From Vampirovibrionaceae bacterium NZW_1234 (GTDB taxonomy: Bacteria; Cyanobacteriota; Vampirovibrionia; Vampirovibrionales; JAGQHJ01), in the NCBI GenBank assembly GCA_041697335.1, contig JBGUGD010000015.1, positions 128,001-192,000 of the forward strand: 64,000 nucleotides of DNA, in the 5' to 3' direction. This document shows positions 15,919 to 52,716 of the stretch, one piece after another. The translations under genes were made by a program, and so were the position numbers. Position 1 is the stretch's first letter, and each line of letters opens with the position of its first letter. Under the pieces are notes generated by a model that saw only the letters and a program-made list of their open reading frames with translations, searched no databases and was not told the origin of the DNA.

Positions 15919-15985
15919 CCGTGCGGACAAATTGTCCGCACGGGGCTCCCCAATTTTTAACCGTGTGGACAAATTGTCCACACGG
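15919..15985. repeat. Palindromic element locus A: two 25-bp palindromes (15919-15943, 15961-15985), 17-nt spacer
   Basis: CCGTGCGGACAAATTGTCCGCACGG and CCGTGTGGACAAATTGTCCACACGG. Confidence 0.9.
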
Positions 15986-16237
15986 GACATGACGCCCCAA
16001 TAAGCGGAAAAACAAATGCTGCGGAATGATTTTTGAAGGAAATTTGACATAAAAACCTCGTCTGATATGGGTTTTTATTTTTGATATACCCAAAAACCCT
16101 TTATTTTAAACGTGTTTATTATTAAGATTTCCTTAAAATCCAACAATAGAGAGTATTTTTGAGTAAAATCACTCAAAATAATCCGATTTCAAACGTTTTT
16201 TCCCGCAAGAAAAGCTGGTTTTATTGAGCCAATTGAT

Positions 16238-17179
16238 TTAGCGGAAGAAATATTGGCGCAACGATGGAATTGAGGTTGGGTAGGTTTGGTAATAGTAGGT
16301 TCTTGAGGGTGTCCAGTCGGTCAGGACGAAATACTCAAAGGAATGCTCCATGCTAAAGTCGTTTTGCGGATAATTTTCAGGAAACGGCTTAAACGGAGAC
16401 GCATAACGAACGGCGGCAAGAGCAGCCTGATCCTGCACTTTGGAACCTGAGGATTTTTTCAGTTTCTGGGACATCAGGGTCCCATCCTTGGCCAGGGTAA
16501 AGGTCACCACGGCTCCGGAATTCTGGCGCTCATCGGCAGGGTTCCAGTGATGGCGAATCCGACGACTGACATCCTTCAAGTAGGGTCCCCAGTTCACACC
16601 GTTGATTTGGTAACGGGGATCATCCACATCAAAAAACATAAAGGAAAAGGGCAGGTTAATGGTGTCCGTGACATAATCGCCGGGCAAGGGACCAAAGGGA
16701 GCCGCATTACGCACTGCCCGCAAGGACATCTCATCCACGTCCCGGTCGCCGGAGGACTTTAACATCCGAGTCGACAACAGGCGCCCATCCCGACTCAGCG
16801 CCAAGAGGACAATGGGGCGAGGGCCCGTGTAGCGGGTCGGCAACTGCCAGTATTTCTCTATCGCATCTTCCAGGTTGGAATAGTAGGGACTGAGCATCAC
16901 CCGCTTCACATCGGAACTCATCACGTTATAAGCTCCACCGGTTCCAACCCCGCCACCAATGTTACTTGGCGCCTGGCGAGCGTTGCTGCCCTTAATTAAC
17001 GGCAGGCGAGTCACGATTTGAGTTTGAGGTGAATTCTTCCGGCTACTGGACCACAGGTTGTCCGACAAGGGCGCAGGCTGGGTGACCTTAGGCTGAACAG
17101 CCCACACGGCCAACGGGGTGGAAACCAACATCAACACCGTCATCAGACGGAGGATAACAGAGGGAGATGCAATGTGCAT
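16238..17179 (-). CDS. Exported protein with two TonB/TolA C-terminal domains
   Basis: Signal-peptide-like N-terminus; two repeats of DG.L....KSSG...D...L.AVR.A.PF.P.P. Confidence 0.85.
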   Translation of the reverse strand: MHIASPSVILRLMTVLMLVSTPLAVWAVQPKVTQPAPLSDNLWSSSRKNSPQTQIVTRLPLIKGSNARQAPSNIGGGVGTGGAYNVMSSDVKRVMLSPYYSNLEDAIEKYWQLPTRYTGPRPIVLLALSRDGRLLSTRMLKSSGDRDVDEMSLRAVRNAAPFGPLPGDYVTDTINLPFSFMFFDVDDPRYQINGVNWGPYLKDVSRRIRHHWNPADERQNSGAVVTFTLAKDGTLMSQKLKKSSGSKVQDQAALAAVRYASPFKPFPENYPQNDFSMEHSFEYFVLTDWTPSRTYYYQTYPTSIPSLRQYFFR

Positions 17180-17270
17180 GGCGGGTACCTACTTCAACTG
17201 CTCAAGCTTCCATGGCTCAGGATTATCTATGATGCTACAAGGAATTGCCTGGCAAGGAAACCCCTTGTAA

Positions 17271-19061
17271 TCAGTCATGACGTTTGGCTGAGGCCGTTTG
17301 TTTCATGGGGGTCTTGGAAACGGTCTTGGCACTGGCCACGGCATGCGGTTTCAGGCCCAGATAACTGGCCGTCTCGGTGGCCAACTGCTTAAAGATTGGG
17401 CCTGCAATGGTGCTTCCCCAAGCATTTCCGACCCCGGGGCTGTCGACCACCACCATGATCAGGACTTCCGGGTTTTCTGCGGGGAAATAGCCCACGAAAG
17501 ACGTAAAGAGTTCGTTGGTATAGCCCCGGCCATTCTCATTGGGCCGACGGGATGTCCCTGTTTTTCCGGCCACATGGTAGCCGTCTAGTCGCACTGTAGA
17601 AGTTTTTGCCGTTTCAATACTTTCGACCAACAGTTCCGTGACGGTCTTTGCCGTTTGTTCCGAGATAACCCGGTGTTTGACCACGTTGGATTGATTCCGC
17701 AAGACATGCGGCGTCACCCAGACACCGTCGTTGGCAATGGCCGCCACAGCAGAGGCCATTTGAATGGGGGTGGAGGCCAACCCGTAGCCAAAACCGATGG
17801 TGGCATGCGTCAGTTGGTCCCAATGCTTGGGTGAGTGAAGAATCCCGCCGGATTCCCCGGGGATATCAATGTGGGTGGGCTGCCCCATGCCAAAGGCTTT
17901 TAACAGGCGATGGTGCTCCACCGGATCCATCATTAATGAGATGAGCAGACTACCAATGTTACTGGAGTGCTGGAAAAGATAGACCAGGTCAATATCCCCC
18001 GGGGCGCCATGCTTGGCATAGTCGTAATTTTTGATGGTAAAGCCGTTCATGTGAATCTGCCCCGTGTCGTGCAAGCGGGAATTGCGGCTGATGACACCGG
18101 ACTCAAGGCCACAGGCGACGGTCAGAATCTTAAAGGTAGACCCGGGCGGATAGACATCGGTAATGGCCCAGTTCTTCAAGGTTTCCGGGGCGGTCTTGGC
18201 ATATTTCTCGGGATCATAGTTGGGCATCACGGCAAAGGCCAGAATTTCACCGTTTCGGGGGTTCATGACCACCGCCGCAGAGCGCTTGGCCTTAAACTCG
18301 GTCATGGCTTTTTCAAGGGCCGCCTCTGCGGCATACTGAATCCGGGCGTCCAACGTCAATTGGACGTCTTCGGCTTTCGGAAGGTTGGTCACCAGGTCCG
18401 AGTTGACGTTCTGGATATTGATAAAATCGCCTCGCCCGTTGTATTCCAAGTCGGGAATATCGGGGGCGGTCCGCAGGATTTTTTCGGCTGTCCGCTCGAC
18501 ACCGGCACTGATGCTGGCATCTTCATTGACATAGCCGATAACATGAGAAGCCAGGTTGCCCTGAGGGTATCGCCGCAACATTTTACGGGGCGTCTCGATG
18601 CCGGGCAGACCCAATTTCTGGATTTCCTGGGCCAGGGGTTTGGGGATGTTCTTTGCCACAGCAATGGTGTCATAGGGGAGCTTCAGGGTTTTCTCCAGCT
18701 TGCTAACAGGCTTTTTCAAAACGGGAGAAAGTTTCTCGGCAATTTCGGCAGGCGTCGTCTTGTAATAGTATCTGGGATGAGCAAAGACATCATACAAGGT
18801 GGTGTCCTGAGCCAGAATCACACCGTTTCGATCCAGGATACGCCCCCGGTTAAAAACGACCAGTGAATGGGATCTCAGGTCTTGGGCCTTCTTATTGTAG
18901 TGATGCAGATCCAAAACCTGAATTTCCAGAAGTTTGAGAACCACCAGCCCAAAGGCCAACAAAAGCAGAAGCCACACAAGCCGGAAACGGGTTAAACGCA
19001 GCCGAAGCATGCGCTGATACAACTCACTTTGGGACATGACGCCTGTGTGCCTAGAACCCAT
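17271..19061 (-). CDS. ftsI: Class B penicillin-binding protein (FtsI/PBP3-like)
   Basis: RGRILDRNG, RRYPQG, PGSTFK (SxxK), SSN and KTGT motifs; AAGGAG RBS before ATG 19061; follows an ftsL-like gene. Confidence 0.9.
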   Translation of the reverse strand: MGSRHTGVMSQSELYQRMLRLRLTRFRLVWLLLLLAFGLVVLKLLEIQVLDLHHYNKKAQDLRSHSLVVFNRGRILDRNGVILAQDTTLYDVFAHPRYYYKTTPAEIAEKLSPVLKKPVSKLEKTLKLPYDTIAVAKNIPKPLAQEIQKLGLPGIETPRKMLRRYPQGNLASHVIGYVNEDASISAGVERTAEKILRTAPDIPDLEYNGRGDFINIQNVNSDLVTNLPKAEDVQLTLDARIQYAAEAALEKAMTEFKAKRSAAVVMNPRNGEILAFAVMPNYDPEKYAKTAPETLKNWAITDVYPPGSTFKILTVACGLESGVISRNSRLHDTGQIHMNGFTIKNYDYAKHGAPGDIDLVYLFQHSSNIGSLLISLMMDPVEHHRLLKAFGMGQPTHIDIPGESGGILHSPKHWDQLTHATIGFGYGLASTPIQMASAVAAIANDGVWVTPHVLRNQSNVVKHRVISEQTAKTVTELLVESIETAKTSTVRLDGYHVAGKTGTSRRPNENGRGYTNELFTSFVGYFPAENPEVLIMVVVDSPGVGNAWGSTIAGPIFKQLATETASYLGLKPHAVASAKTVSKTPMKQTASAKRHD

Positions 19062-19425
19062 AATACTCCTTCGGCGGCCTGGTCTCCGGCGCATCAAGCA
19101 AATGGGACTGATACATCACTTTTGGAATCACGGTCACCGTCTCTTCAGCCATTTTCAGGCCTTTGACAGCCGCAGAGGCGTTAGCCACTTTCTGATAGGA
19201 TTGCACCCGATCCAGGGCAATGTGAAGATCCCGATTTTCTTCGTTCAACGCACGGGTTTCCCTGCCCAGCTTAATGGCCCGGCTTTCCAGAACGATCGAA
19301 ACACCATACAGGACCAACGAGGTGATAAAAAAGAGCGCGGTTAAAATGACCAAAACTCGCCATACCCACGTGGGGACGGACTCAAAGGGCATCTTCTCCA
19401 AAAACGTTTTGGCGTGGGCCAGCAT
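19051..19425 (-). CDS. ftsL: FtsL-like bitopic coiled-coil protein
   Basis: One TM followed by a coiled coil, overlapping the ftsI start; call rests on position and architecture. Confidence 0.55.
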   Translation of the reverse strand: MLAHAKTFLEKMPFESVPTWVWRVLVILTALFFITSLVLYGVSIVLESRAIKLGRETRALNEENRDLHIALDRVQSYQKVANASAAVKGLKMAEETVTVIPKVMYQSHLLDAPETRPPKEYYGF

Positions 19426-19698
19426 CGACTATCTCTATCCACCCGATTCGACTTATCTGCACTATTATACTGCCTAGACAGGCCCTCGGCAAAGTATTGG
19501 ACCATAACCTTGATTGCACGTGAATTCTCCTTGCATGCCCCCCAAAAGCATTCCCAATAGCAATCGACTTACCCAACTCGGATGTCGCCTGACATCGGTT
19601 CAACGGGCTTAAGACCCATCCCAAGAAAGGCCCTCGCATCTCGATGCTCAATTGGCCGGTATAATAACAATCAGGTGATCCCACGATGAGCCACGTCC

Positions 19699-20970
19699 AT
19701 GTCGTTTTTCTCCTGGTTTGCCCAAAATCTTGTGAATCCCGCCTTCTGGTTTCAGCCGATCTTTTATAGTGTGCATGGCTGGTTGGCAACAGAAATGGCC
19801 CTCTGGATGCTGTTTCATCCGTATGAACCGCAATACGTTCCCGGGACTCGGATTCAGCTCCCCTTTACCCCCGGGATTTTCCCTCGGGGACGTCACAAGC
19901 TGTCCATTTCCATTGCCAACACCATTACCGATATCCTGCTGACCCAGGAAGACATCAAAAAACAGGCCGAAAAGCTCATTACCGAAGAAAACATTTACAA
20001 GACCCTGGATCTGCTGTTCGATTCGGTGGGCTCGGAATTGCGCGACATCAGCCATATCCGGCGTCTGTATCGCTATGTGGACAACCTGTTGCCCCCGTTG
20101 CTTCAAAAAATGGCCAATGAGTTTATTCTGGCCATCGACAAAGGGGATGACCAGCATTTTGACCGGGTGATGATGCAGCTCTTAAACCGCATCCTCCCCC
20201 ATATCAGCTTCCGGGAATCCCAGGCCGAGTTCCTGGCCGAAGCCTTCTTCCGCCACGGGCTGACGCCCCCGGTAATCCGGCGGCTCTTAATTGACTTTTT
20301 AACCCCGGAAAACACGGCTCTTCTGGAAAGCGGCATTAAAGACCGCATCGGGGGGATGCAGGGCTTGATTATCCGCTTTATGGATTTTCAAAAAGGCTTT
20401 GGCCAGTTCCGAAGCTTCCTGGAAACCGATGCCGAAGAGGCTGAAGCGCTGCTTGGTGAAATGATGAGCAACATGAACCTGACGGAAAAGCTCAAGCACC
20501 AGATCATGGGCTTTTCGGTTCAGTCCCTGCCGGTGGAGACCCTGGAAGAGTTTAAACTCCACACCATTGCCAATGCCAAAAAGCTCCTCATCCGCTACCG
20601 GGAAGACATTGTGTCCACGCTGCATGACCTGACGGAAGAAGCCACCCAGTCCATCACCACCAGCTTGGTGCATATGGACTTTACCCAGGTGTCCGAAAAC
20701 TGGCTCCCCGGCTTTAAGCGGGATATGGCGGCCTTTATCTATACCTACCTGAACAAGGAACTGGAAAACATGCTGAGTCGGGCCCTGCCTGCCATCAGCC
20801 TGAACACGGTGATTGTGGAAAAGATCGATCAGTTTTCCGCCAAGGAGCTGGAAGAAACCATTCAGCGCATCTGCAGCCGCGAACTGCGCTGGCTTGCGTT
20901 TTTGGGGGCCTTTCTGGGGTTCTGGCTGGGGTTGGTGTCCAACATCATCGGTTACTGGTTCCATCTTTAA
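19699..20970 (+). CDS. DUF445-family membrane protein
   Basis: N-terminal GWLATEMALWMLFHPY...FTPGIFP and C-terminal ELRWLAFLGAFLGFWLG signatures. Confidence 0.85.
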   Translation: MSFFSWFAQNLVNPAFWFQPIFYSVHGWLATEMALWMLFHPYEPQYVPGTRIQLPFTPGIFPRGRHKLSISIANTITDILLTQEDIKKQAEKLITEENIYKTLDLLFDSVGSELRDISHIRRLYRYVDNLLPPLLQKMANEFILAIDKGDDQHFDRVMMQLLNRILPHISFRESQAEFLAEAFFRHGLTPPVIRRLLIDFLTPENTALLESGIKDRIGGMQGLIIRFMDFQKGFGQFRSFLETDAEEAEALLGEMMSNMNLTEKLKHQIMGFSVQSLPVETLEEFKLHTIANAKKLLIRYREDIVSTLHDLTEEATQSITTSLVHMDFTQVSENWLPGFKRDMAAFIYTYLNKELENMLSRALPAISLNTVIVEKIDQFSAKELEETIQRICSRELRWLAFLGAFLGFWLGLVSNIIGYWFHL

Positions 20971-21059
20971 GGACAGTTTGCATTGATCCCTAGCAACGAA
21001 CGCGCTTGAGGGGTGTTTATAGGTCATTGCCCTGATACCGTCTCAAGGATGCAAGGCTG

Positions 21060-22778
21060 ATGATCAAAACCTCCCTGACCCTCCTGCACACTCGACCACC
21101 CCTTACAGCACGCCCAACCCGACCTATGCCTAACCCTGGCCCATTGTTTCAAACTGGGGATCAGGTCTGCTTCGGGGCAGCACGAAAAAAGAGCAACACA
21201 AGCCCCAGTGTCTTCCGAAGCGAAGGGGTTTTAACACCGGACATGATTGCCGAGAAGCAATTGGCCTTCATCCAGCCGGTCACGGCCTCGGATATCCAGG
21301 CCCTGATGGAGGTCGCTTCTCCTGACCCGAAAAACCAGGCCCTCGTGGGACAGGTTTTGGACAGAATGACGCAGTTTGGGAATGAAGCCAGCCTCAACGG
21401 CTTGGTAACCCGGCTGAACAAATGGCTGGAGGCCCCGCTCTTTGTGGATCAGCAAAGCGCCCTGGGCGACTCGCTGTACTATTTGGCTAAGCGTAAAGGG
21501 ACCTTTCAGGATGTGGCTCCCGGGTTTGCGAGAAACATCGAAGACATTCAATCCCACGGAGGCCTGGAGGGGCTGCCCCAATGGGGCGAGACGGAAGGGG
21601 CTTTGCTCCTGGACGACTTGACCCTGACACGCCTTGAGGCAAACCCGGAACTGGTGCGTCATATTGCCAATCATGACTTTACCCTGTTTTATCCGGAAAG
21701 CTGGCTGGATGGGATTACGCTTTTTACGCCGCGTCAACAGATGCTGCCGCGTTTGAAGGCCATGATGGCCAAGGTCCAAGCCCTTCAGGCTGACGGCTTG
21801 CCTCAGGATAAGGCCATTCAAAAGGCCTTGGATAGCACCCTTCAGGAACGCCTTAAAAACATTGCCCTTTCGGCGGGTCTTGCCCCAGAGGCACTTCTGG
21901 AAAAGCTGACCATACTGGAGCACCCCGATAGAAAAGGCAATCCCGCAATAGACCCCGAAGCCTTGGCCCGGCGCCTGGCTCCCAAATACTTGACCAATCA
22001 AACATTGAAAGCCATTATGACCCATACCCACAGCGATGATCGCCCGCCACTGATGGAATTTTTAGACAGGGTCTATCGCCATTACCCGGCGCGAAATCTG
22101 GCTGAAAAATGTCAGGAGCAGCATCAACACATCCGAGAACTGGCCCAGAAGCTTTCGATTTCGCCTGACAAAATCTACTTTTATTTTCCTACCGGCACCC
22201 AAGCCGACGGACTTTTGGATTTTTCCTACAAAAGCAATGGCATGGCCACCATGGTCTACCGGCAAGTCAATCAAATCCCCGCAAAAAACGTCCTGAACCG
22301 AATTCCAGACGAACTGGCACGGGACCCAAGCGCCATGGTGGTTCTGGTCGATGATTTTTCGGGCACGGGTATCCAGATGCTTCAAAGCATGCGCCATTAT
22401 TTTCTCCAAAACGTCAAAGGCCCGGTGGTGTTTGCCCCATTAATTCACTCGGCTGCGGCTCGACGCAATTTTGAGCAAACACAGAAGGGCTATCCCAATC
22501 ACCATTGGGTTTCCACGGAGCAGATTCCAAACTTACAGGAAACGGACTTTTTTAAAACCCTGTCCGAGGCAGACAAGATTCGCCTGTATCAAGCGCTGGG
22601 CAAAGAGCCAGACCCGACAACCGGACAATACAGTCCGGAAGATTTAATCTGCGTCTCCCTATGGAACATGTCCCCGGACAATAACCCGCAGTGCCGGGCT
22701 ATTGATCGGATCCTGAGAGAAGGCGGGCTGCTCAACGAAAAAGGGCATACTAATGCCACAAGCGCCTTCTACGTCTAG
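21060..22778 (+). CDS. Hypothetical protein with C-terminal phosphoribosyltransferase-like domain
   Basis: VVLVDDFSGTG PRPP-loop motif and later PDNN; low-complexity N-terminus ending DQVCFG. Confidence 0.6.
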   Translation: MIKTSLTLLHTRPPLTARPTRPMPNPGPLFQTGDQVCFGAARKKSNTSPSVFRSEGVLTPDMIAEKQLAFIQPVTASDIQALMEVASPDPKNQALVGQVLDRMTQFGNEASLNGLVTRLNKWLEAPLFVDQQSALGDSLYYLAKRKGTFQDVAPGFARNIEDIQSHGGLEGLPQWGETEGALLLDDLTLTRLEANPELVRHIANHDFTLFYPESWLDGITLFTPRQQMLPRLKAMMAKVQALQADGLPQDKAIQKALDSTLQERLKNIALSAGLAPEALLEKLTILEHPDRKGNPAIDPEALARRLAPKYLTNQTLKAIMTHTHSDDRPPLMEFLDRVYRHYPARNLAEKCQEQHQHIRELAQKLSISPDKIYFYFPTGTQADGLLDFSYKSNGMATMVYRQVNQIPAKNVLNRIPDELARDPSAMVVLVDDFSGTGIQMLQSMRHYFLQNVKGPVVFAPLIHSAAARRNFEQTQKGYPNHHWVSTEQIPNLQETDFFKTLSEADKIRLYQALGKEPDPTTGQYSPEDLICVSLWNMSPDNNPQCRAIDRILREGGLLNEKGHTNATSAFYV

Positions 22779-22814
22779 CCCCTACAGCAAAAGAACAATA
22801 GGCTGAAAAACCGG

Positions 22815-23294
22815 TTACGAAGCAGCACAGGCTTGACACAAGCCCACAAACTCCAGGCGATGATCCTCCACCTGAAACCGGGCCTGCTGGGAGACCTGGG
22901 CGAGGATGGCATCCATGCCGTGGCAATGGACTTCTTGGGTCGTGTTGCACTGACGGCAAATCAATAAATGATGACAATGATCGTCTTGAGGTAACTGGCA
23001 GTGATCCTCGTCATCCAGCTGACACTTGCGGACCTTGCCGGTGAGAAGTACCCGGTGGATGAGATGGTTCTCTTCCAGACATTCCAGAATCCGGTAAATG
23101 CTCACAATATCGACCGCTTCATCGGAGGCGGCCAGCAAATCACGGATCTCATAAGCCGATAACGCGGTATTGGCGTCATTTAAAAGCTGCACCACCAACT
23201 TACGAGGCTTGGTGATCCGATAACCTCGCTTCTTGAGAGCAGAAAGCGCATTTTCAGTATAACTGGACATGGGCACATGTTCCGGGTGGGCCAT
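22815..23294 (-). CDS. Fur-family metalloregulator (probably Zur)
   Basis: GYRITKPRKLVV, LSAYEI, SIYRILECL, HCHHLLICRQC and FVGLCQAC; start 23294 or 23270. Confidence 0.9.
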   Translation of the reverse strand: MAHPEHVPMSSYTENALSALKKRGYRITKPRKLVVQLLNDANTALSAYEIRDLLAASDEAVDIVSIYRILECLEENHLIHRVLLTGKVRKCQLDDEDHCQLPQDDHCHHLLICRQCNTTQEVHCHGMDAILAQVSQQARFQVEDHRLEFVGLCQACAAS

Positions 23295-23324
23295 GGTTTT
23301 ATTTTTCAACAGGCGTAACGATTT

Positions 23325-23404
23325 TGCAATCATGCCCCCTTTCACTATTGCAATCATGTTGTATTTATATTGCAATGTAATTGCATTAATGTTGATTGCA
23401 ATCA
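23325..23404. promoter_or_regulatory. Cluster of TGCAAT inverted repeats, candidate Fur/Zur operators
   Basis: TGCAAT-N3-ATTGCA at 23371-23385, TGCAAT-N3-GTTGTA at 23349-23363, TGATTGCAATCA at 23393-23404, half-site at 23325. Confidence 0.65.
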
Positions 23405-23418
23405 GGGTGTCCCACACG

Positions 23419-23766
23419 ATGAGTTTTTCAAATACCACACCAACGGCTGCTGTACTGCCCAAGCGTCTGAACCCGGTTTCTCCGGCCCTGCAACGCTTAA
23501 GCCTGCCGTGGTCTATTCCCAGCGGCGAACTTCGCCTGCATCATCTTAAAACCGCCATCCTCAATCTGCTGATGTTCCCGGTACTGCCCCTGGTTGGCTA
23601 CTTTGGCCTGGATGCCACGGGTGTGACCCAATGGATCATCCATGACAACGACGTGCTGCGCCAGATTTTGGGCGAAGGCTTTGGCCATGCGGGCCTGTGC
23701 TTTGCCCTCCATTACCTGTTGACCAGCGCCAAACATTTCTGGAAAGCCCTCTTTCCTGCCGTGTAG
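23419..23766 (+). CDS. Small two-TM membrane protein with conserved-looking His/Glu residues
   Basis: Two hydrophobic segments (ILNLLMFPVLPLVGYFGL; GEGFGHAGLCFALHYLL); first gene after the operator cluster. Confidence 0.6.
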   Translation: MSFSNTTPTAAVLPKRLNPVSPALQRLSLPWSIPSGELRLHHLKTAILNLLMFPVLPLVGYFGLDATGVTQWIIHDNDVLRQILGEGFGHAGLCFALHYLLTSAKHFWKALFPAV

Positions 23767-23809
23767 CTTTGATTTGTACTTTTTAAAACCCTTCTGGTAA
23801 TTCGGTGTG

Positions 23810-25800: not shown

Positions 25801-25830
25801 TCCCGAAAGTTCACACAAAGGTTAGCACCT

Positions 25831-28063: not shown

Positions 28064-28064
28064 G

Positions 28065-28622: not shown

Positions 28623-28623
28623 C

Positions 28624-29499: not shown

Positions 29500-29537
29500 C
29501 CTATGTGCACTCCTAAACCAACATGATGAGTCCCATC

Positions 29538-36305: not shown

Positions 36306-36418
36306 ATTTGAATTTTTATTAGCATGTTTTATTTTTTTGTTGTTTTAATATATGTACAGCAGGGTTAAACACTTTATTGGACTAACAAATATTGATGACT
36401 TGGAGGGACTTTAGGCTG

Positions 36419-37717
36419 ATGGTCAAACAAGATAGATTGCAACAAGGTGCCGATCAGCATGCGACCGTCCGTAAAGGCGGGGGCTTACTGAAAAAGCCCC
36501 AAGCACAGGAACAGGCAACCGATTACGAAGTTCTGGAGAACGTTAGCAAGACTTCCTTAACTCGTATTGAAATGAACATGCTTCCCAAGCAAAAGCCGGA
36601 TTTTGACTTGCCGGGTGCAACCAAAGACGGTTTAATTGCCGAGTGGTTGAAAGATTGGATCCGTAACGGGGTCGAAAACGGTGACTTGACGGAAAGTCAC
36701 TTGATGCCGAAAAAAGCTGACATTGCCAAATACTTGGGCGTCAGCGTCGGGACGGTTCAAAACGCCATCCGCTTCATTGAAGACGAAGGCTTCGTTGAAT
36801 CCAAACAACGTATCGGCACCATCATCAGCAACCCGGAGCGTTCCGGCTCCCGTCTGCGCAAGCTGACATCCAAGCGGGATCATGCCGTGATTGCTGTTAA
36901 GAAACTGATTCTGGACCGCAACATCCAGCCAGGCGAAGCATTGCCCTCCGCTCGGGAAATTGCCCGTATCATCGGCAGTGCGCCAAATACCACCCGTCTG
37001 GCACTGGAATTTCTGGCCAGCCAGGGCTGCGTTGAAAATCGTGGCGCTCGTGGCAACAAAGCCAACTGGTTCCTGTACGAGGTACCTACCTTAAGTGACA
37101 GTGAAACCGTTACGGCCATTGCTTCTGACACCCTGATCGACCAAATCGAACGGGACCTCAAGAAGCTCATCGCCGATAACTACAACGTGGGCGACAAGTT
37201 GCCGTCTCACCTGGAGTTGGCTGATACCTTGAAAGTCAGTATTAAAACCGTTCACGACGCAATGTGCCGGGTTACTGAGCAAGGCATTGTGCAGTCCAAG
37301 CGGGGCCGCTATGGCACCTACATTATGCGCAAGCCTGACGCTGACAAGCTCTTCTCGACGGAAGAAGCAGCCAGCATCTTTATGCCGGCGCAAGAGGCCT
37401 TGTTTTACAACTATGAAAAAGTTGAAAAACACCTGAAGGTCTTGATCGCAAAAAAGTTCCAACTCGGTGACAAACTCCCATCGATGAGCCAATTGGCTGA
37501 AGCCTTGGATGTCAGTAGCAATACCATCCGCAAGGCCCTGCAAAACCTGGCTCAGGAAGATGTCGTTCGCTTCGAACGGGGCCGTTACGGCGGGACCTTT
37601 GTGACCAAAGTTCCGGAAATCCAAGAAGAAAAATCCTTCGCCTGGGTGTCCATCAATCCGGAAACCATCAAAAGTTACCGGAAGCAAGGCAGCAACCAGG
37701 AAGTGGTTTCCAACTAG
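36419..37717 (+). CDS. Regulator composed of four tandem GntR-type winged-HTH domains
   Basis: Four LP(S)...LA..L.VS..T...A...L...G units (MPKKADIA, LPSAREIA, LPSHLELA, LPSMSQLA); GGAGG RBS. Confidence 0.88.
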   Translation: MVKQDRLQQGADQHATVRKGGGLLKKPQAQEQATDYEVLENVSKTSLTRIEMNMLPKQKPDFDLPGATKDGLIAEWLKDWIRNGVENGDLTESHLMPKKADIAKYLGVSVGTVQNAIRFIEDEGFVESKQRIGTIISNPERSGSRLRKLTSKRDHAVIAVKKLILDRNIQPGEALPSAREIARIIGSAPNTTRLALEFLASQGCVENRGARGNKANWFLYEVPTLSDSETVTAIASDTLIDQIERDLKKLIADNYNVGDKLPSHLELADTLKVSIKTVHDAMCRVTEQGIVQSKRGRYGTYIMRKPDADKLFSTEEAASIFMPAQEALFYNYEKVEKHLKVLIAKKFQLGDKLPSMSQLAEALDVSSNTIRKALQNLAQEDVVRFERGRYGGTFVTKVPEIQEEKSFAWVSINPETIKSYRKQGSNQEVVSN

Positions 37718-37848: not shown

Positions 37849-37917
37849 AATCTTAGATATTGATTTGTTTTTATTTCAGTATCACGTAGTAGCTTTATGG
37901 AAAGTGTGTGTGTCCTT

Positions 37918-40482: not shown

Positions 40483-40628
40483 GGCCATCAGTCTGGTTTG
40501 TATGCACAGGTCTTACATGGTGGCCCTATCCGGGTATTCGCGGGTAAAACAGGCAACCTAAGCCACTTGTCGTTCTGATGCGAGTCCATTACAATCACAA
40601 TACATCCAGCGTCTAGACAGGTGTTTCT

Positions 40629-42364: not shown

Positions 42365-42382
42365 AGGGATATAGGAACCTGC

Positions 42383-43768: not shown

Positions 43769-43814
43769 GATGAGACTTGAATTTTCGGAGTGTACGCATC
43801 AGAAGGACTGACCC

Positions 43815-44720: not shown

Positions 44721-45615
44721 AACCATCGCCCAACTGCGTGCCCTTCGTAACGAGTGGCGCCAAGAGACCGTGGCCTTTGTGCCCACGATGGGGGCCCTTC
44801 ATGGCGGCCACCTGTCGCTCATCCAGAAAGCCCGGACGCTGGGCAGCAAGGTCATTGTCAGCATCTATGTCAATCCCCTCCAGTTCGGGCCTCATGAAGA
44901 TTTTGAACGATACCCGCGCACCCGGGAAGCCGACCTGGCCTTGTGTGAAGAGTATGCCGTCGATGCCGTTTTCTACCCCGACGTCCGGGAACTGCACCCG
45001 GAGGGCTATGACGCCATTACCCACGTGGTCCCCCCCTTGGCCCTGGTGAACCAGTTTTGCGGCCTGGCCCGTCCCGGGCATTTTACCGGCGTTGCCACCA
45101 TTGTGTTGAAGCTCTTTGGTCTGGTTGAACCCCATGTGGCCGTATTTGGTCAAAAAGACGCTCAACAACTGGCCGTCATCCAGCATATGGTAAAAGACCT
45201 GAACCTGCCTGTCACCATTATCCCGGCTCCCACACTGCGAGAAGCCGATGGCCTGGCCATGAGTTCCCGCAACCGATACCTGACCCCGGAAACCCGGCGC
45301 CAGGCCCGGTTGTTGTCTCGCCTGCTGATTACCGCCCAGGAACTCTACCGCCAAGGCATGGAAACCACGGAAGAAACGCTCCGTCTGGCCCAAGAGCAGG
45401 TCCTGGATGCGGATCTGTATCCGGACTTCGAGCTGGAATATTTTGGTGCAGTGCATCAGGACAGCTTTAGGCCCACCGAGATTCTGGATGACGATTCCCG
45501 GCTGTTGATTGCAGCGCGTCTGGGCCAGGTCCGCCTTATCGACAATGCCCTGATCTCAGACCCTGTTCGCCTGGAAGCCACCCGCTTCACCCATACTGCC
45601 AGCACCTTGTCCTAG
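44707..45615 (+). CDS. panC: Pantoate--beta-alanine ligase
   Basis: VPTMGALHGGH, VNPLQF, RPGHF, FGQKDAQQ, GLAMSSRN and RLIDN motifs. Confidence 0.97.
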   Translation: MHLVETIAQLRALRNEWRQETVAFVPTMGALHGGHLSLIQKARTLGSKVIVSIYVNPLQFGPHEDFERYPRTREADLALCEEYAVDAVFYPDVRELHPEGYDAITHVVPPLALVNQFCGLARPGHFTGVATIVLKLFGLVEPHVAVFGQKDAQQLAVIQHMVKDLNLPVTIIPAPTLREADGLAMSSRNRYLTPETRRQARLLSRLLITAQELYRQGMETTEETLRLAQEQVLDADLYPDFELEYFGAVHQDSFRPTEILDDDSRLLIAARLGQVRLIDNALISDPVRLEATRFTHTASTLS

Positions 45616-45711
45616 CCCTGAGTTTGGTCCGGTATTGAAACCGCCCTGTCCCGGGAGACCCGACTTCAATCTCGCCCCCAGGGATGCTATGATGCTGCAT
45701 ACGACGATCCC

Positions 45712-46710
45712 ATGCCCTTGATCGGATTCCTCGCCATGGCCACCTCCCCTGAAGTTCCTCCCGCCAAAACCATTGATGCGTCTCGAATGACGTTGGCTCA
45801 GGTCATCTTCCCCCGAGATACCAATGAGCTGGACTTGGCCACAGCCGGCGTTATCCTGAAAACCATTGATATTACGGCCAGCCTGACGGCGGGCAAGCAC
45901 TCGCAACGCAAAATCGTCACGGCCTCTCTGGATCGCATGGACTTTGTCCACCCGGCCAAGGTCTGGGAACTGGTCACCACCCGGGCCTGTTTGACCAAGA
46001 CGTGGCGCAGTTCCATGGAAATTGAAGTCACCGTCGAGGCCCAACATGCCCGAAGCGGCGAAACCCGCATTGTCGCCCAAGGCTACCTGGTCTTTGTGGC
46101 CCTTCAGGACGATGCCCCCCGTTCCGCCCCGGTTCCGCAACTCATCCTCAGCACCCCGGAAGAAGAGCGAAAAGCCCAGGAAGCCGAACTCCGCAGAGCC
46201 TGCCGTTTGGAAGAACTGAAACTTCTGGGCCATCACCACGAAACCGTCATTCAACCCGACGACCCCTCGGAAACCGTGTGGCGCACCATGACCCCGGATG
46301 ACTCCAACATCAACCAGAACGTCTTTGGCGGCATCATTCTGGAGCTGATGCATGATGCCGCCCAGAAAGCCGCCTTTCGCCACGTCAACGGCCCCGTGAT
46401 TTCGGTTCGCCAGGACCGGATGAGCTTTGAACAGCCCGCCTTTATCGGGGAAGAAGTTCGGGCCCAGGCCATCGTCACCCGCACCTGGACAACCTCGCTG
46501 GAAGTCCAGGTGGATGTCATTGCCAAGGATTACAAAACCCTGGAACAACGCCTGGTCGCAACGAGCTACCTGGTGTTTGTGGCCCAGGCCCCGGATGGCT
46601 CGCCAACCAGAGTCCCCCCGTATGCTCCGCAAACCGCCATGCAACACCGGCGCTGGGAGGAAGCCGACCTACGCTACGCCAGTCGTCAGGCCGAGCGTCG
46701 CATGGATTAA
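45712..46710 (+). CDS. Double hot-dog-fold acyl-CoA thioesterase
   Basis: Two repeats: VTASLDRMDF...SSMEIEV and NVFGGIILELMH...TSLEVQV; alternative start 45736. Confidence 0.88.
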   Translation: MPLIGFLAMATSPEVPPAKTIDASRMTLAQVIFPRDTNELDLATAGVILKTIDITASLTAGKHSQRKIVTASLDRMDFVHPAKVWELVTTRACLTKTWRSSMEIEVTVEAQHARSGETRIVAQGYLVFVALQDDAPRSAPVPQLILSTPEEERKAQEAELRRACRLEELKLLGHHHETVIQPDDPSETVWRTMTPDDSNINQNVFGGIILELMHDAAQKAAFRHVNGPVISVRQDRMSFEQPAFIGEEVRAQAIVTRTWTTSLEVQVDVIAKDYKTLEQRLVATSYLVFVAQAPDGSPTRVPPYAPQTAMQHRRWEEADLRYASRQAERRMD

Positions 46711-46810
46711 TTTCATCCTTGGTTTCAGAAGGGGTTTCTGGCATCATGGTGCCTGTCTGATCCGGGTGGTTGCCCCAGAGATTGGGTTGTGTGAGACGCG
46801 AGGTGCCCCA

Positions 46811-48190
46811 ATGCCCTTTTCAACGTATTTGCCCTATCTTCAGCAAGGCATTGCTGCCATTGAAACCTGGCAGGACCAATGGCCTCCTTTTGAGGACGAT
46901 GACAGCACCCAGGTTGCCCCAGAGCGTCTTAAAGCGATTTTTGCAGAGTTTACCGCCCGTCTCAGGGAGAACTACCCGCATTTTCACCCGCTCTATGCCG
47001 GGCAAATGATTAAACCGCCACACCCGGTGTCGGTGCTGGGCTATTTGACGGCCATGCTCATTAACCCCAACAACCATGCCCTGGACAGCTCTGAAGCCAC
47101 CTCCAGGATGGAAAAAGAATGCATCCAGCAGCTAGGCCGCATGTTCGGCTACGCCACACCCTTAGGCCATCTCACCGGCGGAGGAACCGTGGCCAACCTG
47201 GAAGCCTTGTGGGTGGCCCAGCAACTTCACCCGGACAAAGCCATTGCCTTTAGCGATCAGGCCCATTACACCCATCGCCGGATGTGTGACCTCATTGGAG
47301 CCAAAGCCGTGTCCATTCCCAGCCTGCCCACAGGCCAGATAGATTTGGACGCCCTTCGCACGACCCTAGCCACCACCCCCATTGGCACAGTGGTCGCCAC
47401 ATTGGGGTCTACAGCCTTGGGGGCGCTGGATGAACTTGAGGGCTTGCTGCAACTTCAACAGGAATTCAGCTTTCGCATCCATGTAGACACGGCCTATGGC
47501 GGCTTTTATGCCATTCTCGCAGAAACGGACCCCGCGTTTTCGGTGTATGGCCTGATCCGCCACTGCGACAGCGTGGTCATTGACCCGCACAAGCAAGGCC
47601 TTCAACCCTATGGGTGCGGGTGTGTTCTCTTCAAAGACCCCTCTGTCGGCCACCTGTACCGCCATGACTCCCCCTACACCTACTTCACTTCCGATGAGCT
47701 TCACTTGGGCGAAATCAGCCTGGAATGTTCCCGCTCCGGCGCCTCAGCTGCCGCCCTCTGGCTGACCTTGCAGTGTTTTCCCCTGAGCCCGGATACGGGT
47801 TTTGGCCCCATCCTGAAGCAGACCCGCACGGCGGCCCTCACCATGGCACAGGCCCTTCAGGCTTCCTCGGCCTTTGAATTGCACCTGTCGCCCCAACTGG
47901 ACATCGTCACGTATTTTCCTGTCGGCCAAAGCACAGCTGAAATAAGCCAGCGCACCGATGCCATCTTCAAAGCCGCCATGACCTCTGAGACGGCCCCGCT
48001 TTATCTGGCCAAACTCAAGGTGAATGCCCGGACATTTACCACCCAACACCCGCATATTGTAGCCGATAGCGCGGAGGTCACCCTCTTTCGAAGCTGCCTG
48101 CTAAAGCCCGAGCATGCCGCCCACATCGACACCCTGATGACCCACCTGCATCAGCATGCCGCGGCCACCCAAACACCGGTGCCGCTCTAG
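46811..48190 (+). CDS. Group II PLP-dependent amino-acid decarboxylase
   Basis: GGTVANLEALW, IHVDTAYGG and DSVVIDPHK (PLP lysine); GAGGTG RBS before ATG 46811. Confidence 0.88.
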   Translation: MPFSTYLPYLQQGIAAIETWQDQWPPFEDDDSTQVAPERLKAIFAEFTARLRENYPHFHPLYAGQMIKPPHPVSVLGYLTAMLINPNNHALDSSEATSRMEKECIQQLGRMFGYATPLGHLTGGGTVANLEALWVAQQLHPDKAIAFSDQAHYTHRRMCDLIGAKAVSIPSLPTGQIDLDALRTTLATTPIGTVVATLGSTALGALDELEGLLQLQQEFSFRIHVDTAYGGFYAILAETDPAFSVYGLIRHCDSVVIDPHKQGLQPYGCGCVLFKDPSVGHLYRHDSPYTYFTSDELHLGEISLECSRSGASAAALWLTLQCFPLSPDTGFGPILKQTRTAALTMAQALQASSAFELHLSPQLDIVTYFPVGQSTAEISQRTDAIFKAAMTSETAPLYLAKLKVNARTFTTQHPHIVADSAEVTLFRSCLLKPEHAAHIDTLMTHLHQHAAATQTPVPL

Positions 48191-48279
48191 GCTTTAACCA
48201 AGAGACTCCTACAAAAACGCCCTGGCCTCGCGTCTCACATGTCCCCGGGGGGGGATTAAATCCTTCTCCAGCCCGTGGC

Positions 48280-49440
48280 CTAGGAACCGCCGGAGAGGAC
48301 CTCTTTGAACTTGCCCATAAAGCTGGTGTGTTGCGCCTTATGCTCTTTGCCGGAGCGCTCGGACTCCAGTTCCCGGAGCTTTTCCAAAAGCTTTCGCTCT
48401 TCGTGGGACAAACGCTTGGGCACCTCCAGAACGACCTGGACGTGGTAGTTGCCATGCTGCCCGGCACTGTTGAGGATGGGAATCCCCTGGTTTTTCAAGG
48501 TAAAAACCGCCCCACTTTGGGTCCCGGCTGCGATTTTAATCTTATCGGTCCCCTTGAGCAAGGGCACTTCAATGTCATCACCCAAGGCCAACTGGGAATA
48601 GGTCACCGGCACAGAGGCATACAGGTCGTACCCGTCTCGCTGAAAGACCGGGTGCGGCAGGACATGCAAAATGACATACAGATCGCCGGACGGACCGTTC
48701 ATGGGCCCTGCATTGCCTTCACCCCCGACTCGCAAACGGGTGCCGGTATCCACACCGGCAGGCACCGTAATGGACAGGGTCTTGGTTTCCTGCTCCCGGC
48801 CCCGGCCTTCACAGGTGCGACACGGATCCACAATCATGGTGCCCTGGCCCATACAACGGGGGCAGGTGCTGATTTGGGTAAAATGCCCGATAATCGTCTG
48901 TGTGGTCTGGCGAATCTGACCTTGCCCCATACAGGTTTGGCACACGGCTGGCCCGCCCGAGCCCGGGGACGCACCCGAGCCCTCGCAGGAGTGGCAATGC
49001 TTCAGGCGATTGACTTCAATCTCTTTGCTGATGCCAAAAGCCGCGTCCATAAAATCAATTTCAAGATCATAGCGCAGATCTTCACCCCGCATCTGGGTTT
49101 GCCCACGACCATATCCTTCCCCCCCGGGGAAGCCACCACCAAAGAACTGGGCGAACAGATCGTTGAGATCCGGAAACCCTTGCATAAAGTCCCACGTGGG
49201 CTGATACCCACCGCCACGCAAGCCTTCATGGCCATAGGCATCATACACTTGGCGCTTCTGCGGATCACTTAAGACTTCGTACGCTTCTCCCAGCTCTTTG
49301 AAGAGCTCATCGGCGTTGGGGTCCTTGCTCACATCGGGATGGTATTCCCGGGCTTTCTTGCGAAACGATTTCTTGATCTCTTCGGGAGTTGCGTTTCGTG
49401 AGACCTCAAGGATCTCATAATAGTCTCGTTTTCCACTCAT
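48280..49440 (-). CDS. dnaJ: Chaperone DnaJ
   Basis: DYYEIL, HPD, four CxxCxGxG motifs and GDLYV. Confidence 0.97.
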
Positions 49441-49449
49441 AGGGGCGTA

Positions 49450-50079
49450 TTAATGTCCTGTGGTTTGCTGAAAGGGATTGTTCTTGGCAGCGTCGGGAGA
49501 AAACCCACCGGCGCTGGATTCGGTTTCGGCAGCCTCTGCAGGCGTGGCCCCAGCCGGAGCCACCGCGACAACAACCCGAGCCGGACGAATGACGCGATCG
49601 TGCAGAATATACCCATCCTGGTAGACTTCAATAATGCTCTGATCCGGAACATCCCCGTTTTCAACCTGACTGATGGCCTCATGACGCTCAGGGTCAAAGG
49701 GTTCGCCCTTGGGAGACATCTTGGTCAAGCCCATGTCTTTCAGGTTGTCCAACAACTGCTGGGACAGCATTTCAAAACTCTTATACAGCATTTTGGGATC
49801 CGAGGTCTCGGACAAGCTTTGCTGGGCCCGCTCCAGATTATCCAGAACCGGTAACAGGTTTTCTAATGTGGCCTGGGCACCGTACTTAAACAGGTGTTCC
49901 CGTTCCTGGGCCTGGCGCTTGCGAAAATTCTCAAAATCCGCTGCGAGTCGAAGATACCGGTTGTTAAGCTCCTGATACTCGTCAGAGCCCGGTCCGCCGG
50001 TTGCTTCGGCAGCGTGAACATCGCCTTCGGATAACGTGCTTTCCGAGGTTTCGGTCGCCTCTTGTTGTTTGTCCATCAT
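49450..50079 (-). CDS. grpE: Nucleotide exchange factor GrpE
   Basis: RLAADFENFRKR, LLPVLDNLERA, FDPERHEAI and RVIRPARVVV; AAGGA RBS. Confidence 0.96.
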   Translation of the reverse strand: MMDKQQEATETSESTLSEGDVHAAEATGGPGSDEYQELNNRYLRLAADFENFRKRQAQEREHLFKYGAQATLENLLPVLDNLERAQQSLSETSDPKMLYKSFEMLSQQLLDNLKDMGLTKMSPKGEPFDPERHEAISQVENGDVPDQSIIEVYQDGYILHDRVIRPARVVVAVAPAGATPAEAAETESSAGGFSPDAAKNNPFQQTTGH

Positions 50080-50431
50080 GACCAAATTCCTTCGCAGCCA
50101 CTGACTCTGATTCATTATAGAACGCTGATGCCGAAGAAAGGAGATCCTTAAGGATTTCTTAAGCACCTCTCCTCCAGCCTGATGAATTCCATACGAGCGG
50201 CCTGTCCCGAAGAAGCCACGCCTACTCCCAAGCCAAGCGGACCCATGCAACCTAAAAAAGCCTTAAATCCTTACTATTAATAGTTTTTTAAGAAAAAATA
50301 CGTTTAAAACCCTTTCAATATGGGAATATAACCAATAAATAAACCCCAAAACAAGGACAACTGATGATGACCCCCTCTTCTAAAACCCACTTACAACGCT
50401 TTATGGCATCAGTACTGCCCTCCCGGGATTC

Positions 50432-50555
50432 CCGTGTGGACAATTTGTCCACACGGTTACTTGTCCCCCTGAACGCGCCGTACGGCCAATTTGGCCGTAC
50501 GGTGAAACCGCCTCCAAATGGCCTATCTGACCGTGCGGACAATTTGTCCGTACGG
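50432..50555. repeat. Palindromic element locus B: three 25-bp palindromes (50432-50456, 50478-50502, 50531-50555), spacers 21 and 28 nt
   Basis: CCGTGTGGACAATTTGTCCACACGG, CCGTACGGCCAATTTGGCCGTACGG and CCGTGCGGACAATTTGTCCGTACGG. Confidence 0.9.
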
Positions 50556-50729
50556 CGAATCATTGGCCAAAAACCCACACGCCAAACAGGGTGTTCCCCA
50601 AGCAAGACCTTGATCTGGCAGGGGCACTTTGAAAAAGCGGCTCCTTTAGGCCACAATAAAACTAACCTGGGAAGGCCCTGATACAGCCCTCTCCTGGGGT
50701 GGATGTAGCAGCAGTACCGAGGGCGGCCT

Positions 50730-51812
50730 GTGGGTGACGAGGATAAACAGTTTGAGGCCTCGCAACAGAAGCTGAAAAAAGCCAAGGAAGACGGTCAGGT
50801 CATTAAGAGCAAGGATGTCTCCACGGCTGTCTTTTTGATCGTCATGTTCGGCCTTCTTTATGTCCTGGGACCGATGATTTGGAACCAGATGGCCAAGCTC
50901 TTCATCCTTATTTTTGACCAGATCCCCCATAAAAGCGCCGAAGAAGTGGGCCATATGTACCTGTTGACCCTGGTCGTCCTGACCCTGGTCATTACCATCG
51001 GCCCGTTTCTGATTATTGCCGCAATGGTCGCCATTGCCGGGGACTTCTTCCAGGTGGGCCCCCTGGTGTCGATGAAAGCCCTGGAGCCCAAGTTCGACAA
51101 ATTGAACCCGGTCAAGGGCATCAAGAACCTCTTTACCATGCGATCCCTGATTGAGCTGGTGAAAAACATCCTGAAAATTGCCATTCTCGGGTATATCGGC
51201 TGGCTGGTATTTCAGGCCCACATGATGGAGCTGTTTGTGATTGGCCAGGCCGAAAACATCATGGCCATGATGAGCCTTCTGTGCAAGGTCCTCTTCGAGT
51301 TTATGATCAAGACCGGCATCGTCTTTTTGATCATCGGCATGGGCGACTATCTGTTTCAGCGCTGGAAGTTTCTTCAGGATCAAAAGATGTCGTTCAAGGA
51401 ACTGAAGGACGAGTACAAAAACTCGGAAGGCGACCCCCACGTCAAAGCGGCCCTTCGTCAACGCCGGATGCAAATGCTCCAGCGAGGCATGCTGGAAGCC
51501 GTGCCCAATGCCGATGTCATCATCACCAATCCCATCCATATTGCCATTGCGATCCGTTACATGGATGAAGTGATGGAGGCCCCGCATGTGGTGGCTAAAG
51601 GTACGGAACTTTTTGCCGAAAAAATTAAAGACATCGCCAAAGAACACGGTGTGCCCATTGTGGAAAATGCCGCCGTTGCCCGAGCGTTGTTTCAGGCCGT
51701 GGATATTGACCAGGAAATCCCCCCGGAAATGTACCAGGCCGTTGCCGAAATCCTGATGTTTGCATGGCGAATTAAGGGCCAACCGATTCCCGGCAAGCGA
51801 CAGACAGAGTAG
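50730..51812 (+). CDS. flhB: Flagellar export substrate-specificity protein FlhB
   Basis: KAKEDGQV.KSKD, KLNPVKG, EYKNSEGDP and ITNPIH (NPTH-like autocleavage site). Confidence 0.93.
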   Translation: MGDEDKQFEASQQKLKKAKEDGQVIKSKDVSTAVFLIVMFGLLYVLGPMIWNQMAKLFILIFDQIPHKSAEEVGHMYLLTLVVLTLVITIGPFLIIAAMVAIAGDFFQVGPLVSMKALEPKFDKLNPVKGIKNLFTMRSLIELVKNILKIAILGYIGWLVFQAHMMELFVIGQAENIMAMMSLLCKVLFEFMIKTGIVFLIIGMGDYLFQRWKFLQDQKMSFKELKDEYKNSEGDPHVKAALRQRRMQMLQRGMLEAVPNADVIITNPIHIAIAIRYMDEVMEAPHVVAKGTELFAEKIKDIAKEHGVPIVENAAVARALFQAVDIDQEIPPEMYQAVAEILMFAWRIKGQPIPGKRQTE

Positions 51813-51871
51813 GTAGTGTATAATAGTGGTCTCAAGGTACCTGTCAGGCATTAAATCAGCATATCTGCTGT

Positions 51872-52600
51872 ATGTTGATGGAAGGAAACAGTTCAACGGT
51901 GAAGCCAAATCAGCAAATCAACCATAGACTCGAAGAACGCAACCTCGCCAAGTATTTACCCCTGGTCGAACGTGTTGCCAAGGTAGAGTACCGCCGTGTG
52001 CCCTCGCATATGGTGGACTACGAAGAGCTGGTCAGCATTGGCGCCATTGCTGTTCAAAGTATCCTGCGCGGCAAAACCGCCGAACAGATTGAAAATCTCA
52101 ATATCTCCTATATTGCCACAGCCACTCGCTGGGCCATCCGCAATGAACTTCGCACCCGATACAAATGGTATACCCTGAAACATACCCGGACCGCCGAAGA
52201 ATCCGAAAGCAACGGGGCTGACGGGGATGGCGAAAACAGCGAAGGCAAAGACAAAGAGTCGCCCGAATCCATTCGGGAAGCCGTTTACGAGACCATTCTG
52301 TCCATTGACGGGATCTCCGACGGCCAGGACGGCGACTCCAGCTACGACTTTATCAGCGACAACGGCGCCCGCCCCGACGAACACCTGGAAATCGTGGAAC
52401 TGGGGAAAGCCATTAAGAAAGCCATTGAAAACCTGCCGCCCAAAGAGCGCACCATTGTGGAATACCGCTTTTACCGCAACATGCAGGTCAAGGAAATTGC
52501 AAGCCTCGTCGGCCTATCCTCCTCCCGGGTCACTCGCATTGTCCAGGCTTCACTGGATATGGTGCGCGAGTACCTGAAAGAAATGGAGCAAATGGACTAA
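51872..52600 (+). CDS. FliA/WhiG-like RNA polymerase sigma factor
   Basis: YLPLVERVA, WAIRNELR (region 2) and LPPKERTIV...KEIASLVGLSSSRVTRI (region 4); adjacent to flhB. Confidence 0.85.
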   Translation: MLMEGNSSTVKPNQQINHRLEERNLAKYLPLVERVAKVEYRRVPSHMVDYEELVSIGAIAVQSILRGKTAEQIENLNISYIATATRWAIRNELRTRYKWYTLKHTRTAEESESNGADGDGENSEGKDKESPESIREAVYETILSIDGISDGQDGDSSYDFISDNGARPDEHLEIVELGKAIKKAIENLPPKERTIVEYRFYRNMQVKEIASLVGLSSSRVTRIVQASLDMVREYLKEMEQMD

Positions 52601-52669
52601 TCGCCACCATTGTTGGGCGTCGGAAATTCACGAGGCCCATTTTTTGGGGTGTCTTGCCACTGGCCTAAA

Positions 52670-52716
52670 AATGCTTTTCTCCGTACGCGCAAATTGCGCG
52701 TACGGAGAAAAGCATT
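52670..52716. repeat. Palindromic element locus C: single 25-bp core (52681-52705) extended to a 47-bp palindrome
   Basis: AATGCTTTTCT-CCGTACGCGCAAATTGCGCGTACGG-AGAAAAGCATT. Confidence 0.9.

Follow-up and report, generated by a model that had tools for sequence, protein, structure and literature searches.

Dispersed 25-bp palindromes in a Vampirovibrionaceae genome as probable cognate loading sites of two ParB-like proteins whose genes contain the same palindromes

What is a 25-bp palindrome that recurs between genes of no common function, and where do its copies come from? The question was raised by a stretch of 64,000 nucleotides from Vampirovibrionaceae bacterium NZW_1234 (here called the window; G000:C29:128001-192000, where G000 is the host assembly of 3.70 Mb in 41 contigs, 94.75% complete), which contained six copies at three intergenic loci. 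The explanation that best accounted for the data as a whole, given a probability of about two in three, was that the palindromes are cognate loading sites of two ParB-like proteins encoded on other contigs and that the genes for these proteins were probably the source from which the dispersed copies were made. Its first part taken alone, that the palindromes are cognate DNA loading sites of the two proteins, was judged very likely from sequence comparison, since palindrome bases co-varied with residues of the recognition helix.

The six copies, none with an assigned strand, stood where an earlier note on this DNA had placed them. Two (15919..15943 and, 42 bp further on, 15961..15985) were found between the convergent ends of a JmjC/cupin gene (+) and a TonB-family gene (-). 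Three (50432..50456; 50478..50502, 46 bp further on; and 50531..50555, another 53 bp on) lay in the divergent region between grpE (-) and flhB (+). The last, a solo copy at 52681..52705, lay between a convergent sigma70_r4 gene (+) and an unnamed ORF (open reading frame; -). The copies at 15919, 15961, 50432 and 50478 belonged to a subfamily with the core GG[A/C]C and the solo copy to a subfamily with the core GCGC, while the copy at 50531 consisted of two different valid half-sites joined. Five of the six were perfect palindromes (12+1+12) and the sixth, at 50531, had a single G-T pair; segment 15958-15987 was identical over 30 bp to the reverse complement of 50430-50459; and the solo copy extended in a site-specific manner to a palindrome of 47 bp (52670..52716), all as the note had described. 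At up to two mismatches the window contained six matches against 0.21 expected, and the largest number in 100 shuffles was one. A search of the window with Rfam at the gathering score returned one tRNA only and no match to the palindromes. The FlhB encoded in the window was closest, at 79%, to one from a Vampirovibrionales MAG (metagenome-assembled genome), and the host is thus probably a relative of cyanobacteria that does not photosynthesise.

The note had also expected many copies genome-wide, and these were found. The strict pattern matched 36 times in the whole 3.70-Mb genome; the relaxed pattern gave 45 copies at 29 loci after one non-palindromic match was dropped; of these, 31 had the core GG[A/C]C and the other 14 the core GCGC. 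Copy density in the window was higher than the genome average. Co-variation of the arms, noticed on six copies, extended to the full set: 32 of the 45 had perfect arms, whereas re-pairing the arms at random 5000 times gave 5.7 on average and never more than 14. The flanks of all 45 lacked GTAG/CGTC ends, again in agreement with the note.

Pfam ParB_N (PF02195) was matched over its cut-off in exactly the two scanned ORFs that contained a copy. The first gene (G000:C13:203654-204610; 318 residues) contained an in-frame GCGC variant identical to the window copy at 52681, and the second (G000:C2:169960-170904; 314 residues) an in-frame GGCC variant. Both genes were intact, their products were 44% identical, and the palindrome was at the same position in both, in the linker just before the helix-turn-helix (HTH). 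Each gene thus had one dispersed subfamily of its own: the 14 GCGC copies corresponded to the 318-residue protein and the 31 GG[A/C]C copies, including the pair at 15919 and 15961, to the 314-residue protein. The two genes were located among housekeeping or unnamed genes, and no parA or phage gene was recognised near either.

A structure model (mean pLDDT, the predicted local distance difference test, 77.9) comprised a ParB N-domain, a disordered stretch and then the HTH, with helices at 160-168 and 172-187; the palindrome-coded residues 148-155 overlapped a stretch with pLDDT below 50 (143-154). The closest solved relatives were Noc and ParB by sequence, and Noc, ParB and KorB by fold. The GxxR P motif, as defined for ParB-fold proteins (PMC12704722), was present, and its G74 and R77 were invariant. 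Both proteins scored below the TIGR00180 cut-off (45.5 and 35.3 bits vs 58.45) and far below that of the Noc model TIGR04285 (44.7 and 41.2 bits vs 315). The ParA-binding motif was absent from both sequences, and a Noc-type N-terminal amphipathic helix was not evident by eye, the N-terminus having pLDDT below 50. No canonical ParB over the TIGR00180 cut-off was found in 49 genomes of the order. The canonical parS sequence had one near-match in the host assembly.

A palindrome within the gene was found across much of the protein family. At the same position, each of the seven close homologues, from five genomes of the order, had a full or partial palindrome of different sequence, and three of the seven headed prophage portal-protease-capsid modules; more distant cyanobacterial members mostly had one there too. 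Viral contigs yielded no member of the close subfamily, and a metagenome scan gave one locus. Two viral contigs found by DNA pattern held an in-gene palindrome, in one of them the same 25 bases as in the 314-residue gene. The wider family was largely phage-borne. Its sample was built from 95 loci, 80 of them viral, which after removal of 10 unparsed loci and five duplicates left 80 unique genes. A linker palindrome score of at least 8 was reached by 48 of these 80 genes, but by only five of the 560 control windows taken within their own ORFs. Of the 85 loci parsed, 83 had a single site within 2-21 kb. The linker palindromes occurred in all three reading frames (26, 19 and 4), which argues for a constraint on the DNA and not on the peptide.

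Several further observations concerned these relatives. In-gene palindromes of viral loci L214, L218, L219, L207 and L132 matched dispersed variants of the host genome at all or nearly all of the 25 bp; such agreement in distantly related genes may reflect horizontal exchange of sites or tight joint constraint. One viral clade (L186, L191, L197, L215, L216, L220 and L234-L236) had a weak linker palindrome or none, with scores of 2-4.5. In the host genome, a phage remnant (L166:8700-14635; G000:C26, about 33.7-39.6 kb) contained a terminase large subunit and integrase pieces, a ParB_N protein without a palindromic linker, and a 376-residue ORF with the look, by eye, of a D12-type methyltransferase.

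The link between protein and palindrome was examined in the 66 of the 80 genes that had an in-register palindrome, each base being compared with each of 204 protein columns. Representatives were 44 genes under 60% identity, and HTH positions are counted by convention so that the turn glycine is residue 9. Among the representatives, G at base -6 went with R/K at HTH16 ([[17,1],[1,23]], p=1e-9) and C at -3 with R at HTH17 ([[26,2],[1,14]], p=2e-8), followed by C at -4 with S at HTH11 (p=7e-5) and G at -5 with R/K at HTH13 (p=5e-4). The top columns were HTH16 for base -6 (z 17.1), HTH11 and HTH13 for -4 (z 8.0 and 7.4) and HTH17 for -3 (z 9.0), all exceeding 300 of 300 permutations. Over all rows the pairings read as follows: at HTH16, R with G (26/29), Q and E with C (28/28) and A with T (4/4) at -6; at HTH17, R with C (40/41), L with A (10/10) and E with G (4/4) at -3; and at HTH13, R with G (50/54) at -5.

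The pairings of -6 with HTH16 and of -3 with HTH17 held up in tree-based tests. With the linker and the recognition helix left out of the tree, independent pairs were concordant for HTH16 (6.9 of 8, p 0.016) and HTH17 (5.8 of 6, p 0.031), none ran in the opposite direction, and reading-frame controls were null. All four R16/R17 combinations were seen with the expected bases, HTH16 was uninformative on -3 and HTH17 on -6, and the residues between palindrome and helix carried little signal; block co-inheritance therefore does not explain the co-variation. Base -8 varied with the residue of the K-H-G motif that precedes the linker (p 0.03). The rules were also applied to 22 held-out genes, of which 14 could be parsed, 10 from a single cyanobacterial clade; there the predicted base was found in 13 of 13 cases at -5, where it is the majority state, and in 13 of 14 at -3. 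S172 and N178 of Caulobacter ParB contact parS (PMC7383237); these residues aligned with HTH11 and HTH17, in an alignment that is itself weak.

The two resident proteins matched their subfamilies at the same positions. The 318-residue protein has N11/A13/R16/R17 and its sites G-C-G-C at -6 to -3; the 314-residue protein has G11/R13/R16/R17 and its sites G-G-[A/C]-C, its own in-gene site being G-G-C-C. Glycine 11 of the latter would plausibly tolerate the mix of A and C at -4 of its dispersed copies. In the proposed mechanism, an HTH dimer would read its own palindrome with one subunit per arm; the protein, in which GxxR is kept, would bind a nucleotide and slide or bridge as ParB, Noc and KorB do, and would load at the dispersed copies as a dimeric clamp. 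In phages the single in-gene site would tie each protein to its own specificity. Once such genes had settled in a chromosome, successive alleles of the site would have been copied to new, tolerated intergenic spots. The earlier note's suggestion of a binding site for a dimeric protein is thereby supported at the level of sequence, by the two ParB-like genes with an in-frame palindrome and by the pairing of residues with bases.

An unbiased palindrome scan of the genome revealed a sister family of the same 25-bp length with 17 copies and the core GG[A/C]A (examples at L001:4333, L002:3212, L005:3488 and L019:2829). Its outer arms resembled the in-gene site of a ParB-like homologue in another genome (G020), and from its core, G-G-[A/C]-A, a third protein is predicted that would have R13, R16 and a residue other than R at 17. 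Nine of its 15 intergenic loci were convergent. Sister copies were found in frame in the variable linkers of radA (L005:3488; G000:C7:142487) and of a second host protein (L006:3564; G000:C9:125563). With its 25-bp copy, radA was only two residues longer than the radA of three family-level relatives, and neither of the two cases, both in variable linkers, gave a clean insertion boundary.

Gene context was called with a purpose-built dicodon gene caller. Intergenic loci made up 26 of 29 for the main family and 41 of 46 for main and sister families together. Of these 41, 20 lay at convergent gene ends, compared with a background of 11-13% (p=6e-8), and seven lay in divergent regions, which comprise 35% of intergenic length (p=0.009, a depletion). 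This layout is hard to reconcile with a classical operator regulon, in which both proteins would regulate neighbouring genes from promoter operators as KorB or VirB do. Sequence-specific recognition by the HTH, which is likely from the co-variation, the fold match to KorB and the three window copies between divergent grpE and flhB would all suit such a regulon. Promoter regions are the ones depleted, however, and the neighbours of the copies, in the window and at the loci scanned, had no common function, so that operators are a very improbable account of the family.

The enrichment at convergent ends also raises the idea that the hairpins are kept at the RNA level, as terminators or stabilisers of mRNA at gene ends. 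The 47-bp copy on the minus strand and the copy at 50432 on the plus strand did score as terminator-like, but these were only two of the four copies in the scanned region, and in most copies the T-rich flank lay on the 5' side, opposite to where a terminator has it (flank tables of the 45 copies gave TCA/TCT-type flanks). An RNA-level role would moreover leave both the co-variation with the HTH and the three-frame in-gene position unexplained, and it is accordingly improbable.

Three main-family copies were inside coding sequence, two of them in the ParB_N genes; for the third ORF no relative was found with the query used. GCGC copies were solitary and GG copies clustered. Spacings within clusters (42-54 and 87-99 bp, n=16) were in phase with 10.5 bp (p=0.004; n=13 and p=0.006 after repeat removal). 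One array on contig C19 (L008:4426-4622) comprised five copies spaced 42-44 bp apart, in which a higher-order unit of 129 bp was partly repeated, and some of its spacers held a CCCCAT-like word common to clusters on C2 and in the window. The main family was absent from three contigs longer than 200 kb (C10, C26 and C34), the contigs of the draft being unordered. Elsewhere in the window, a 441-residue ORF at 36392-37717 (+) contained four GntR-type HTH matches in tandem.

The dispersed copies bore traces of the genes. The two or three bases flanking them resembled the flanks of the in-gene site, and half-site variants at -9 to -7 recurred as in-gene alleles elsewhere in the family, which suggests that alleles held one after another by the site in the gene are preserved in the copies. 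The 'compensatory substitutions' of the earlier note are to be read in this way: the symmetry of the arms held, and paired mutations arising copy by copy are probably not its source, the variants matching in-gene alleles of the protein family. The same traces would be left if each copy were a fossil, all that remains of a ParB-like gene or prophage that has decayed. When every six-frame piece was searched with the profile and without filtering, none of the dispersed copies was found to have a gene remnant, which largely refutes a fossil origin; with 32 of 45 copies perfect and copies 42-54 bp apart separated by unrelated spacers, such an origin is scarcely credible.

The other reading of the dispersal is a selfish hairpin of the REP (repetitive extragenic palindromic) kind: a neutral repeat, born from the in-gene site, that moved as a single-strand hairpin by way of a lost or unrelated enzyme or of host repair, with binding by the ParB-like proteins incidental and without a role. 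It has the same origin step as the loading-site explanation and differs on function. Restriction of the spread to one lineage, enrichment at convergent and depletion at divergent regions (safe sites for an insertion), the strong hairpins (z -7.5 to -11.7) and the in-frame sister copies in radA and another linker are all consistent with it. So are the site-specific arm extensions, which exceeded chance: extensions of at least 5 bp were found in four of 14 GCGC copies (p=0.0006) and three of 31 GG copies (p=0.03), the seven extended copies having 5-11 extra bases. Decay that does not spare the read positions, described below, also fits a neutral repeat.

No mobility machinery was found in what was scanned. 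Y1_Tnp (PF01797), the mark of a RAYT (REP-associated tyrosine transposase), had no match in the host assembly; the control gave matches in six of 14 genomes. By Pfam, no transposase, HUH or integrase gene was found among 135 ORFs (56 in the window and 79 beside 20 loci), and no consistent target duplication or flanking direct repeat in 62 copies of both families. It also counts against a neutral repeat that neither of the two matching genes has decayed and that each has HTH residues in keeping with its subfamily. A selfish hairpin is for these reasons unlikely. The earlier note's 'REP-like or mobile hairpin' was borne out for the layout (lineage-restricted, convergent and clustered) and not for the means of movement: neither a RAYT, nor a target duplication, nor the transposase, HUH or integrase neighbours it had envisaged were among what was scanned. 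Copying by repair or template switching appears to fit better than cut-and-paste, given the arm extensions, the several dispersed copies made of two different valid half-sites joined, and a radA only two residues longer. The dispersed copies may thus have arisen by repair or template switching and not through a transposase.

The dispersal was confined to this genome among those searched. The pattern was not found in 40 relatives. A looser one matched 41 times in the host assembly, whereas none of 400 further genomes in the class had more than two matches, close to what the reversed control gave. Searches with each gene's own palindrome found no dispersal elsewhere: 48 genomes from the order had it once for each gene, apart from G004 with two copies, and in five cyanobacterial genomes and G313 the site was likewise single per gene, with the caveat that fragmented assemblies can lose repeats. 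A second palindrome upstream of the ParB-like gene was seen twice: the gene's own site in G004 (L109:1768) and a different one of 31 bp in G022 (L108:1089).

Several points weigh against the view that the palindromes are loading sites copied out of the two genes. The conserved length of 25 bp exceeds the 16 bp of parS and of the Noc-binding site (NBS). Decayed copies did not spare the positions read by the protein (-5 hit twice and -3 once in 62 half-sites), so that selection for binding at the dispersed copies lacks support. The helical phasing may merely reflect a common 42-44-bp ancestor. No gene matching the 17-copy sister family was found in the assembly, 94.75% complete, with a broader profile also tried. 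Within the code, the pairing of -5 with HTH13 (z 4.5) stayed below the family-wise 95% bound of 4.8; this pairing and that of -4 with HTH11 reached only p 0.125 in the tree pairs; and in the held-out genes the exact base was right in two of 12 cases at -6 (T in place of the predicted C, and G in no case) and in two of 12 at -4. In the two stretches compared, no empty site of the kind that the earlier note had looked to was bridged by a contig from five of 11 public runs. Separately, a low-depth contig of the diverged run X10 joined 52602 to 52677 with other letters between, which hints that the solo copy persists next to a differing flank but was too thin to use.

With cognate loading sites as the preferred explanation, an anonymous repeat becomes a testable protein-DNA pair. 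A gene that supplies its own site would allow the sites of thousands of orphan ParB-like proteins to be read from their genes (at E<=1e-10 there are 2212 representatives, some of them outside this subfamily). The HTH16 and HTH17 rules offer a hypothesis for the diversification of ParB-family specificity, and natural orthogonal protein-site pairs would be useful as DNA labels. For REP-like families the explanation would provide a concrete origin without a RAYT, a question that several families of palindromes still pose. It also yields a candidate chromosome organiser in an order with no canonical ParB over the cut-off in 49 genomes; the array of sites might now organise the chromosome of this lineage. 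A bolder form is speculative and rather doubtful. It holds that phage-derived ParB clamps write their own loading site into the gene linker with a readable code, that two such genes (once three) were domesticated in a lineage in which no canonical ParABS was found, and that the bound protein itself spread the sites to about 60 positions and phased arrays. If true, the palindromes would form a REP-like family partnered by a ParB-fold protein instead of a transposase, and the system would be a Noc-like chromosome organiser caught at birth.

Among known systems, a site inside the gene of its protein has a counterpart in the parS within the spo0J gene of Bacillus subtilis. The small dispersed repeats (SDR) of cyanobacteria, a related phylum, are likewise very short, dispersed and without a known transposase. 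HIP1 was not abundant in the host assembly (57 copies). The combination of in-gene site, residue-to-base code and chromosomal spread was not described in the literature searched, which comprised titles and the starts of abstracts, with supplements outside its scope and most subscription journals not covered.

ParB-parS systems, including SopB-sopC of the F plasmid (PMC7383237, PMC7022226, PMC3177203), likewise have ParB_N with GxxR, an HTH and a palindromic site, and the 42-44-bp spacing recalls the 43-bp sopC repeat. In contrast to canonical ParABS, the proteins described here had no parA neighbour and no ParA-binding motif, fell below the TIGR00180 cut-off and had an altered Box III, and their sites were on 16 contigs. 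KorB and the orphan ParB-like proteins of mobile elements share with the present family a stand-alone ParB-CTPase fold without parA and frequent occurrence in prophages; according to their survey, the choice of nucleotide is unpredictable from sequence (PMC12704722). The words 'palindrom' and 'inverted repeat' were absent from the main text of that survey.

The REP/REPIN-RAYT systems (PMC3116915, PMC3733652) share with the present family extragenic, lineage-specific palindromes of 20-40 bp, singles and clusters, and flavours matched one-to-one to a single-copy gene. The present copies lack the GTAG/CGTC tag (45 copies) and a Y1_Tnp partner, and are perfect palindromes with a one-base centre; their partner gene encodes a DNA binder of the ParB fold and has the repeat within it, not on its flanks. 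Noc, the top match of the two proteins by sequence and by fold, is an orphan ParB-fold protein with palindromic sites scattered over the chromosome of B. subtilis outside the terminus (Noc-NBS; PMC8429893, PMC7383237). The present system scores far below the Noc model and has 25-bp instead of 16-bp sites, two proteins with different sites, a site inside the gene and phage-borne relatives. Taken together, the system works most like Noc-NBS or KorB-OB, and its layout is like that of REP-RAYT.

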